Positions 33,007 to 34,527 of a stretch of 39,122 bases of DNA are shown piece by piece. Position 1 is the stretch's first letter; each line of letters starts with the position of its first letter. The notes beneath the pieces were generated by a model. It did no database searches. It saw only the letters and a list, made by a program, of their open reading frames with translations, and was not told the DNA's origin. A program made the position numbers and the translations under genes. The DNA is from a virus (taxonomy: Duplodnaviria; Heunggongvirae; Uroviricota; Caudoviricetes), in IMG/VR virus record IMGVR_UViG_2869924733_000008; one strand, written 5' to 3'.

Positions 33007-33074
33007 AGGATAATGCGCTCTGAGTTTCCCGATTATCGAGAACTGTTCAGGGAGTCTGACATCAAGAGCGCGGT

Positions 33075-34295
33075 TGTAGATTCAATCTGTCAATGCAACA
33101 CCCCTTTCAATTATCTCTTTCGGTGTTTTGAACTTCAGTGTCTTTCTCGGTCTGTTGTTTAGCTGAGCAGCAACCAGATCTAGTTCATGTTGAGTATATT
33201 GGGCAAGACATGTCTTTTTAGGAAAGTACTGCCGAATTAGCCCATTTGTGTTCTCATTTGTTCCCCGCTGCCAAGGACTCTGAGGATCGCAGAAGTAAAC
33301 TTTAACGCCGGTGCTGACAGTAAATTCTAGATGTCTGGCCAGTTCCATTCCTCTGTCCCATGTCAGTGATTTTCTGAGTTCTGACGGTAAACTCAGGAAT
33401 TTGTCGGTAAGAGCCTGATTTACTGAGACAGAATCTTTGCCCCTGAGTCTAAGGATGATCGTATAACGTGATTTTCGGTCTACAAGTGTGGCTATATGAG
33501 AGTTTTTTGTACCTGAGACTAAATCGCCCTCCCAATGCCCCAGAGAGCGTCTGTTATCGATATTTCGGGAACGTTCGTGAATTGGTGTTCCGTTCACTAT
33601 GTTAATCGTACCTCTTTCGCCTTTGCGGGTATGACGCCTGCCATGGCGAAGGCTATGCGACCGTCGCAGATGCTGTATATTCAGGTGGTGTAGCGCTTCA
33701 CGGCTACGAAAGTACAGCGTTTTATAAATTGTCTCAGGTGATATTCGCAGCGTTTTTTGACGTGGTTTTGTTCGCCTTAACCATCCTGATATTTGCTCTG
33801 GAGACCATTTCATCTCCAGCTTTTCCAGAACAAGCTTTCGCAATGGTAAATTTTGATCCAGTAAGCACGGTTTTGGCCTTTTCGCCATTCTGTTGGCTCG
33901 GTTATTAGCATCAACAGCTTTGTAATAGCGTCTGCCCCGATTACGCTGAACTTCACGTGAGATCGTCGAAGGACTGCGATTCAGCGCAGTAGCTATCGCA
34001 CGAATGCTCATTTTGGCTGACAAACCAGCTCGTATCTCCTCGCGCTCAGACAGTGTCAGGTGAGCTACAGCCCGCTTACGCTCATGGGGTTTTATGCCGC
34101 CAGTATCCCTTAACATAGTGAAGATCGTTCCGGGTTTTGAACCCAGGATATTCGCTATTTCACTGAAGCCTGTTCCGTTCTTCCATAGTTCAAAAACAGA
34201 GGCTTTTTCCTCTGCTGTAAATGTTCGTCTCATTCAAAAAACCTCCGCAACCCCATGTTTTCACATAACTGTTGCGTTGACCAATTGAATCTACA
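33075..34295 (-). mobile_element. IS30 (1221 bp) inserted in IS911 orfA
   Basis: IS30 terminal repeats; 2-bp duplication (GT on the plus strand) at 33073-74 and 34296-97. Confidence 0.9.
33082..34233 (-). CDS. insI: IS30 transposase (383 aa)
   Basis: Full-length, identical protein to the other intact copies. Confidence 0.95.
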
Positions 34296-34527
34296 GTAGC
34301 CTTTTTTAATATTTCATTCTCCATTTCAATGCGTTGTAGCTTTTTCCTCAGCTTACGTATTTCGATTTGTTCTGGTGTTATCGGAGAGGCTTTTGGTGTT
34401 TTGCCCTGACGCTCATCACGCAGTTGTTTGACCCATCTTGTCATTGTGGAAAGGCCAACATCCATAGCTTTGGCGGCATCTGCCTGAGGTGTACTGGCAA
34501 TAGCGGACACTACCATTTGTTCTTTTT

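Follow-up and report, generated by a model that had tools for sequence, protein, structure and literature searches.

This locus raises the question of why an IS30 element lies inside an IS911 element just 3′ of the A AAA AAG heptamer of orfA, at the position that IS30 also occupies in IS600. The heptamer is the -1 frameshift site of IS911, and frameshifting there is stimulated by downstream RNA structure. An earlier note on this DNA had proposed that IS30 recognises a motif in the frameshift window of IS3-family elements. We analysed the IS30 copies and junctions in the whole stretch of 39,122 nucleotides (the window), derived the target motif from IS30 insertions outside IS3-family elements, and searched for the same junctions in complete E. 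coli genomes and in viral, species-representative and metagenome sequences.

IS30 copies and their nested hosts

The IS30 copy in IS911 (Table 1) is bounded by imperfect 26-bp terminal inverted repeats (33075-33100 and 34270-34295, 88% complementary) that begin TGTAGATTCAAT. Its transposase has an N-terminal helix-turn-helix and a DDE core (Pfam HTH_38, 82.6 bits; rve, 53.1 bits), and the same protein matches the NCBIfam model NF033563 for IS30 family transposases with 276 bits at a cut-off of 80. In the sense of IS911, which is the minus strand of the window, the near junction joins ...GAAATATTAAAAAAGGCTAC to TGTAGATTCAATTGGTCAAC... and the far junction joins ...ATTGAATCTACA to ACCGCGCTCTTGATG..., so that the codons read GAA ATA TTA AAA AAG GCT AC, then IS30, then AC CGC GCT CTT, with the tip of the element in the Thr codon after ILKKA. 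Excising IS30 and one duplicate in silico yielded a 160-nt site that matches, at 100% identity, elements without an insert in complete E. coli genomes, which PGAP, the RefSeq annotation pipeline, labels as 'IS3-like element IS911 family transposase'.

Table 1. Coordinates of the IS30 copies, their hosts and the associated signals in the window
Feature	Position	Strand	Remarks
IS30, fourth copy, in third IS600 copy	10675..12813	+	2139 bp; same dinucleotide; IS5-family insert
IS30, third copy, in another IS600	26030..27250	-	1221 bp; same dinucleotide; IRL adjoins orfA
IS911	32159..37120	-	4962 bp, enlarged by nested IS600 and two IS30; terminal inverted repeats
Target duplication GT (AC in IS911 sense), orfB side	33073..33074	.	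direct reading
IS30 copy inside IS911	33075..34295	-	1221 bp; IRL adjoins IS911 orfA
IS30 transposase gene	33082..34233	-	383 aa; open reading frame and Pfam/NCBIfam matches
Target duplication GT (AC in IS911 sense), orfA side	34296..34297	.	direct reading
IS911 slippery heptamer A AAA AAG	34301..34307	-	direct reading
IS600 in 5′ part of IS911 orfA	34485..36971	-	holds its own IS30
IS30, second copy, in nested IS600	35424..36644	+	1221 bp; IRR adjoins orfA

The host element carries the terminal inverted repeats TGAAGTGGTCAAC.../...GTGCCACTTCA, also written TGAAGTGG..., and its orfB (32167-33006), which lies in the -1 frame with the A6G heptamer in the overlap with orfA, matches NF033516 (IS3 family) with 303 bits and rve with 111 bits; an OrfA of the IS911 type scores 53.6 bits on HTH_Tnp_1. 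A second host, IS600, lies in the 5′ part of this orfA between 3-bp GCC duplications (34482-34484 and 36972-36974), so that the IS911 orfA is interrupted twice, once by IS600 and once by IS30. The orfB of the nested IS600 (34528-35346) matches NF033516 with 330 bits.

The nested IS600 carries its own IS30 between GT duplications at 35422-35423 and 36645-36646, beside the IS600 heptamer A AAA AAA at 36650-36656. Its junctions read ...GATATATTAAAAAAAGCAAC, IS30, ACAGCGTATTTTG..., or in IS600-sense codons TTA AAA AAA GCA AC, IS30, AC AGC GTA TTT, with an A7G run, an AC duplication and the same Thr codon after ILKKA. This IS30 and the copy in IS911 are 100% identical but lie in opposite orientation relative to their respective IS3-family hosts. 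The empty IS600 site, rebuilt in silico (160-161 nt), is 100% identical to intact elements that PGAP labels 'IS600 family'. In total, the window holds four IS30 copies, one in IS911 and three in IS600; all four interrupt the homologous ILKKAT codon and are flanked by GT on both sides. We found no IR-IR junction, and all IS30 ends within the window adjoin IS911 or IS600 sequence.

These junctions bear out what the earlier note had read at this locus, namely an IS30 in IS911 at the position homologous to the IS600 site, an AC duplication (GT on the plus strand) at both junctions in the same codon as in IS600, A7G as the equivalent run in IS600, and an IS30 that separates the slippery site from its downstream context and from orfB. 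Its distance of about 6 nt between heptamer and element was a fair estimate, with 5 nt (GCTAC) found. The location that it gave for IS30, 33073-34297, is correct, but this span includes the two copies of the duplication, and IS30 proper occupies 33075-34295.

Several further elements lie in the window. The transposase gene of the fourth IS30 is itself interrupted by a 916-bp IS5-family element (11790-12705) with inverted repeats GGCTGTGTCCCTTAAT, a TA duplication and two overlapping ORFs that match NCBIfam NF033580, which makes three nesting levels at this place (IS600, IS30, IS5-family). An identical, inverted pair of IS630 copies (29196-30354 and 37167-38325; 1159-nt arms, 343-aa DDE_3 transposase) encloses the IS911/IS600/IS30 cluster together with the phage replication genes between them. 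Positions 1-10400 are the tail and baseplate region of a prophage, and the best matches of the prophage part in complete E. coli genomes have 97-98% identity at no more than 75% query coverage. As none of these genomes reaches 80% coverage, the window probably derives from a genome outside that collection, IS-rich and of the Shigella or enteroinvasive E. coli-like kind.

Target motif

Hot spots of IS30 are nearly palindromic and give a 2-bp duplication (PMC9333248). Outside IS3-family elements, we identified six complete IS30 insertions that have direct 2-bp duplications; their hosts include a phage tail/late-control gene, a type I restriction gene and the intergenic region upstream of arcA. 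Toward the IS30 tip, both arms of all six sites read approximately (A/T)T-A-A-A-(A/G)-A-(A/T)-G-G-C-N followed by the duplicated pair, from which we derived AAA(A/G)A(A/T)GGC-N as the half-site, together with the 2-bp duplication, also written AAAAAAGGCN-NN. The corresponding targets are AAAAAAGGCT[AC]CGCGCTCTTG in IS911 and AAAAAAAGCA[AC]AGCGTATTTT in IS600. A 24-bp IS30 target consensus was reportedly given by Olasz et al. 1998 (Mol Microbiol 28:691).

A weight matrix trained only on the six non-IS3 sites was used to scan the window with its four IS30 copies removed (33,286 positions; mean score -20.1, SD 7.9). The IS911 site ranked first of 33,286 with a score of 21.1, to which both arms contributed positively (12.8 and 8.4), and the three IS600 sites ranked 4th-6th with a score of 11.2, the right arm of the IS600 target being weak in the matrix. 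When the training sites were left out one at a time (five left), IS911 was still first and the IS600 sites were 12th or better. With locus L053 dropped from training, the real site ranked 1st-5th in the surrounding sequence (about 2-3 kb) of each IS3-family host tested. The same matrix placed only third of 295 the lambda position at about 33290 (an approximate coordinate), which reads AAAAGTGGCG[AT] and which we take to be LHS, an experimentally used IS30 hot spot.

Two IS3-family lineages without A6G (AAAGCAGGC and AAAACAGAC) have IS30 at the same codon, their targets with the duplication being CTAAAGCAGGCT[GC] and TTAAAACAGACC[AC], and non-IS genes with ...TTAAAAAAGGCT[CT] also receive IS30. 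Because lineages without A6G and non-IS genes are targeted as well, the determinant is the DNA motif and not the recoding function. Of the proposal that IS30 recognises a motif in the IS3-family frameshift window, the match to a motif therefore stands, whereas the frameshift signal itself is not what is recognised. The likeness of both sites to other IS30 sites, on which that proposal depended, is seen in their fit to a half-site taken from outside the IS3 family.

Proposed explanation

We conclude, with a probability of roughly 0.85, that the IS30 in IS911 is an ordinary hot-spot insertion made through the usual near-palindromic target preference of the element. The IS30 transposase favours a near-palindromic target of about 24 bp and duplicates its central 2 bp. 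In many IS3-family elements, orfA ends by encoding (I/L)-L-K-K-A, with the DNA TTA AAA AAG GCN or TTA AAA AAA GCN, and the Lys-Lys-Ala codons AAA AA(A/G) GCN, which combine the slippery run with GC, supply a near-perfect half-site. In this IS911 copy, the A-rich half-site thus consists of the heptamer and the next GC. A weaker mirror-image arm comes from the Ala-Tyr/Leu-Phe/Leu codons further downstream (GCN TAY TTY), which are roughly the reverse complement. With one strong half-site and one weaker mirror arm, IS30 would be expected to land repeatedly after the Ala codon and in either orientation. The segment on which insertion would depend is AAAAAAGGC.

For the host element, the predicted consequence is loss of the OrfAB transposase, which should not be made from such a copy, as IS30 splits orfA and the heptamer from orfB. 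According to the ORFs, the interrupted OrfA loses about its last 12 residues and gains an IS30-encoded tail of 28-34 aa. A fold of the RNA of the intact IS911 window gave no significant structure (z-score -1.0). An IS30 lodged in an IS3-family copy may carry no cost for the host cell and would then persist and be inherited, which probably adds to the abundance of such insertions. We regard it as doubtful that IS30 is a habitual parasite of the IS3 family whose preference is kept up by thousands of neutral, horizontally mobile (I/L)LKKA windows and which leaves its hosts with an OrfA-like product only and perhaps dampens the transposition of their remaining copies.

Recurrence in complete E. 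coli genomes

Junction probes of 161 nt were used to query 5426 complete E. coli genomes. Because the IS30 ends diverge after their first 12 nt, a probe match with at least 80% coverage is specific for one end. The junction of IS911 orfA with IRL, the orientation of the window, was found in 1042 genomes and that with IRR, for which the probe was built in silico, in 1214, whereas IS600 orfA adjoins IRR, as in the 35424 copy, in 332 genomes and IRL in 1284, K-12 MG1655 among them. These counts are inflated by vertical inheritance, horizontal spread and recombination between IS30 copies and are not a measure of insertion frequency. Because homologous recombination between IS30 copies cannot swap the joins of ends to flanks, the four junction types represent at least four separate joints made by the transposase at one dinucleotide.

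The E. coli collection contains 7209 IS30 left ends, and at least 3824 of them adjoin IS911 or IS600 at this site, a lower bound that sums records rather than individual sites. The junction with a third IS3-family element accounts for up to 1239 further E. coli records. Of all the left ends in this collection, IS3-family windows thus hold more than half. The IS911 site was occupied in 2311 records and empty in 2649, and the IS600 site was occupied in 1620 and empty in 1785.

Such numbers invite an adaptive reading, which we consider unlikely, in which the preference of IS30 has been shaped or maintained by abundant, mobile and cost-free IS3-family windows that IS30 in turn disables. It would draw on the share of left ends at these windows, on replicons with occupied sites being of the same order as those with empty sites, and on the many lineages and genera involved (see below). 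All of this is abundance, however, and would look the same for an evolved preference and for a fortuitous match to a conserved coding motif; in addition, IS30 also uses unrelated genes that contain the motif. This reading is compatible with a hot-spot insertion, to which it adds an evolutionary claim only.

Host range across IS3-family elements

To describe the hosts more widely, the left end of IS30 was scanned in viral contigs, in contigs of one genome per species and in metagenome contigs, and the right end in viral contigs; these scans report exact matches to the IS30 end, so that the sample consists of IS30 itself and excludes diverged relatives. The flanks, with at least 91 unique 20-nt flanks among the matches listed, were sorted by tblastn and by reading the translations. 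Left ends lay at an IS3-family frameshift window in 11 of 19 cases in species-representative genomes, in 27 of 34 in viral contigs and, among the matches listed, in 91 of 119 in metagenome contigs. The genomes that carry them are labelled Escherichia, Yersinia aleksiciae, Citrobacter, Silvania, Kluyvera, Tatumella, Enterobacter, Shewanella and Marinifaba.

Clustering at 70% identity over the last 45 aa of the interrupted OrfA resolved about 12 lineages with IS30 at the same codon among the matches listed, namely IS600, IS911, a third common element and nine rarer ones. The OrfA endings of the rarer lineages are ...QNTILKKA, ...EKEILKKA, ...DKEILKKA, ...QRDILKKA, ...EIEFLKKA, ...DNDLLKKA, ...EKEILKQA (two lineages) and ...EIEILKQT. 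Eight of the nine lineages tested, out of about 12, passed the threshold of Pfam HTH_Tnp_1, and the protein identity of some host lineages to IS911 or IS600 is only 29-35%. In every lineage the duplication comprises bases 1 and 2 of the codon that follows Ala, GCN [NN], and GC, TC, AG and AC were seen as duplications across lineages. The look at other genomes that the earlier note had suggested thus finds IS30 at this position, with both orientations represented in IS911 and in IS600, and finds it also in the remaining lineages among the matches listed.

The third common element reads ...RVTDERDILKKA with the duplication GC and is occupied in both orientations; the RefSeq annotation gives it no specific name, the PGAP label being 'transposase' or 'IS3 family transposase'. 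Its native target is AAAAAAAGCC[GC]GGCG (loci L082, L007, L105, L115, L132 and L167, for example), and in some cases GT or AC replaces the GC next to the IS30 tip, on either side. The same two dinucleotides border IS30 in IS911 and IS600. A donor IR-IR junction whose 2-bp spacer was carried over in repair would fit this pattern, which could also be simple mutation.

In two viral contigs, L008 and L020, an IS911-like orfA contains an expanded (GAAATA)n repeat, translated as EIEIEIEI..., directly upstream of the IS30 site. The repeat in L008 spans about 7200-7267, just 5′ of the IS30 left end, and the A-run of this orfA has degraded to AAAACAG.

Of the unique left-end flanks within IS3-family elements, 33 are at the one dinucleotide and five elsewhere, among the matches listed. 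The ends elsewhere occur in L048 (Candidatus Erwinia dacicola), L084, L138, L152, L159 and L166, at about codon 41 of orfA, at ...ESEILQ of the IS600 orfA or within orfB. Some of these lack a duplication and may be end points of deletions or rearrangements rather than primary insertions.

If IS30 had little sequence preference and its copies in insertion sequences were simply those that are kept because they do no harm, insertions into dead mobile DNA would be neutral, the very high share of IS30 ends in IS3-family elements would follow, and a prophage as riddled with insertion sequences as this window would be a natural place to find them. Survivorship alone nevertheless predicts a scatter over the 1.25-kb hosts, which is the opposite of the concentration of flanks just described; other harmless DNA in the window (the IS630 and IS5-family elements and prophage remnants) is free of IS30, and the sites outside IS3-family elements show the same motif. 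We rejected it as very improbable, given that insertions lie at one dinucleotide rather than being scattered.

Least credible of all, and rejected, is a single or coincidental entry of IS30 followed by spread between IS600 and IS911 through gene conversion or recombination, since, even though the two share the local sequence ATATTAAAAAA-GC-AC and hybrid flanks such as IS911 orfA, IS30, IS600 orfB prove that IS30-bearing copies do recombine, the two IS30 copies nested in IS911 have opposite orientations relative to their hosts, all four combinations of end and flank exist, distant hosts (about 12 OrfA lineages among the matches listed, some 29-35% identical) have their own duplications at the same codon, and the site is predicted by a matrix trained outside IS3 elements. 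Hot-spot insertion through the ordinary target preference is thus the reading that we carry into the comparison below.

Comparison with known systems

In the literature, an IS911 interrupted by IS30A has been described in E. coli K-12 (PMC9333248), and a 1998 paper recorded IS30 beside IS911 on a ColV-type plasmid without interpretation (PMC2212542). In the accessible literature we did not find the coincidence of the hot spot with the frameshift window, for which Olasz et al. 1998 may list sites, nor, that paper aside, the recurrence over about a dozen IS3-family lineages and several genera or the share of more than half of the E. coli IS30 left ends.

Knowledge of this site accounts for the frequent annotation of IS30 beside fragments of an 'IS3 family transposase' in E. 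coli, Shigella-like and other enterobacterial genomes, and it provides a rule for annotation, namely that IS30 is to be looked for after ...TTAAAAAAGGCNNN or ...TTAAAAAAAGCNNN of an IS3-family orfA. As a natural multi-copy hot spot, the site is also a possible test substrate for target recognition by IS30. Moreover, hybrid junctions that arise from IS30 copies in different IS3-family hosts matter for the reconstruction of IS-mediated rearrangements, K-12 IS30D being an example.

IS30D of K-12 MG1655 has the same junctions as those described here, with IS600 orfA next to IRL and IRR next to the reverse-complemented IS911 orfA. Unlike the window, in which four IS30 copies are simple insertions with direct duplications, IS30D is a recombinant hybrid with the inverted dinucleotides AC/GT. 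This arrangement resembles the outcome of an inversion between one IS30 lodged in IS600 and another in IS911. At this locus (L034, NZ_CP032667.1 4009418-4019578, with IS30 at 5082-6302 of the extracted sequence), the A-run of IS911 is A5, not A6. Mixed-host flanks are also present on many IS30 copies at metagenome and viral loci such as L097, L113, L118, L153, L187 and L007, for example IS911 orfA, IS30, IS600 orfB (four copies among the matches listed) or third-element orfA, IS30, IS911 orfB, which indicates frequent recombination between IS30 copies in different hosts.

The same transposase also favours a second class of target, next to an IS30 inverted repeat. The IS30 in IS911 differs from this class in being flanked by IS911 sequence and a direct 2-bp duplication, with no IR-IR junction. 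The elements that insert into REP sequences are comparable in that a sequence-specific transposase repeatedly lands in a multi-copy and largely neutral sequence (PMC1525189). The target here, however, is the orfA-orfB recoding window and not an extragenic palindrome, and the match arises from codons rather than from a structural repeat.

The closest parallel is the targeting of the lambda LHS hot spot, which shares the near-palindromic target, the 2-bp duplication and the use of either orientation, and the left arm of which, AAAAGTGGCG[AT], aligns with the AAAAAAGGCT[AC] of IS911. The difference is that the hot spot described here lies in a conserved motif that serves coding and recoding in a second family of mobile elements. 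Because it is embedded in an IS3-family motif, genomes contain many copies of it, and it recurs across genera. The IS3-family windows are a recurrent natural multi-copy class of hot spots for IS30, which reflects known behaviour of the element and no new mechanism.
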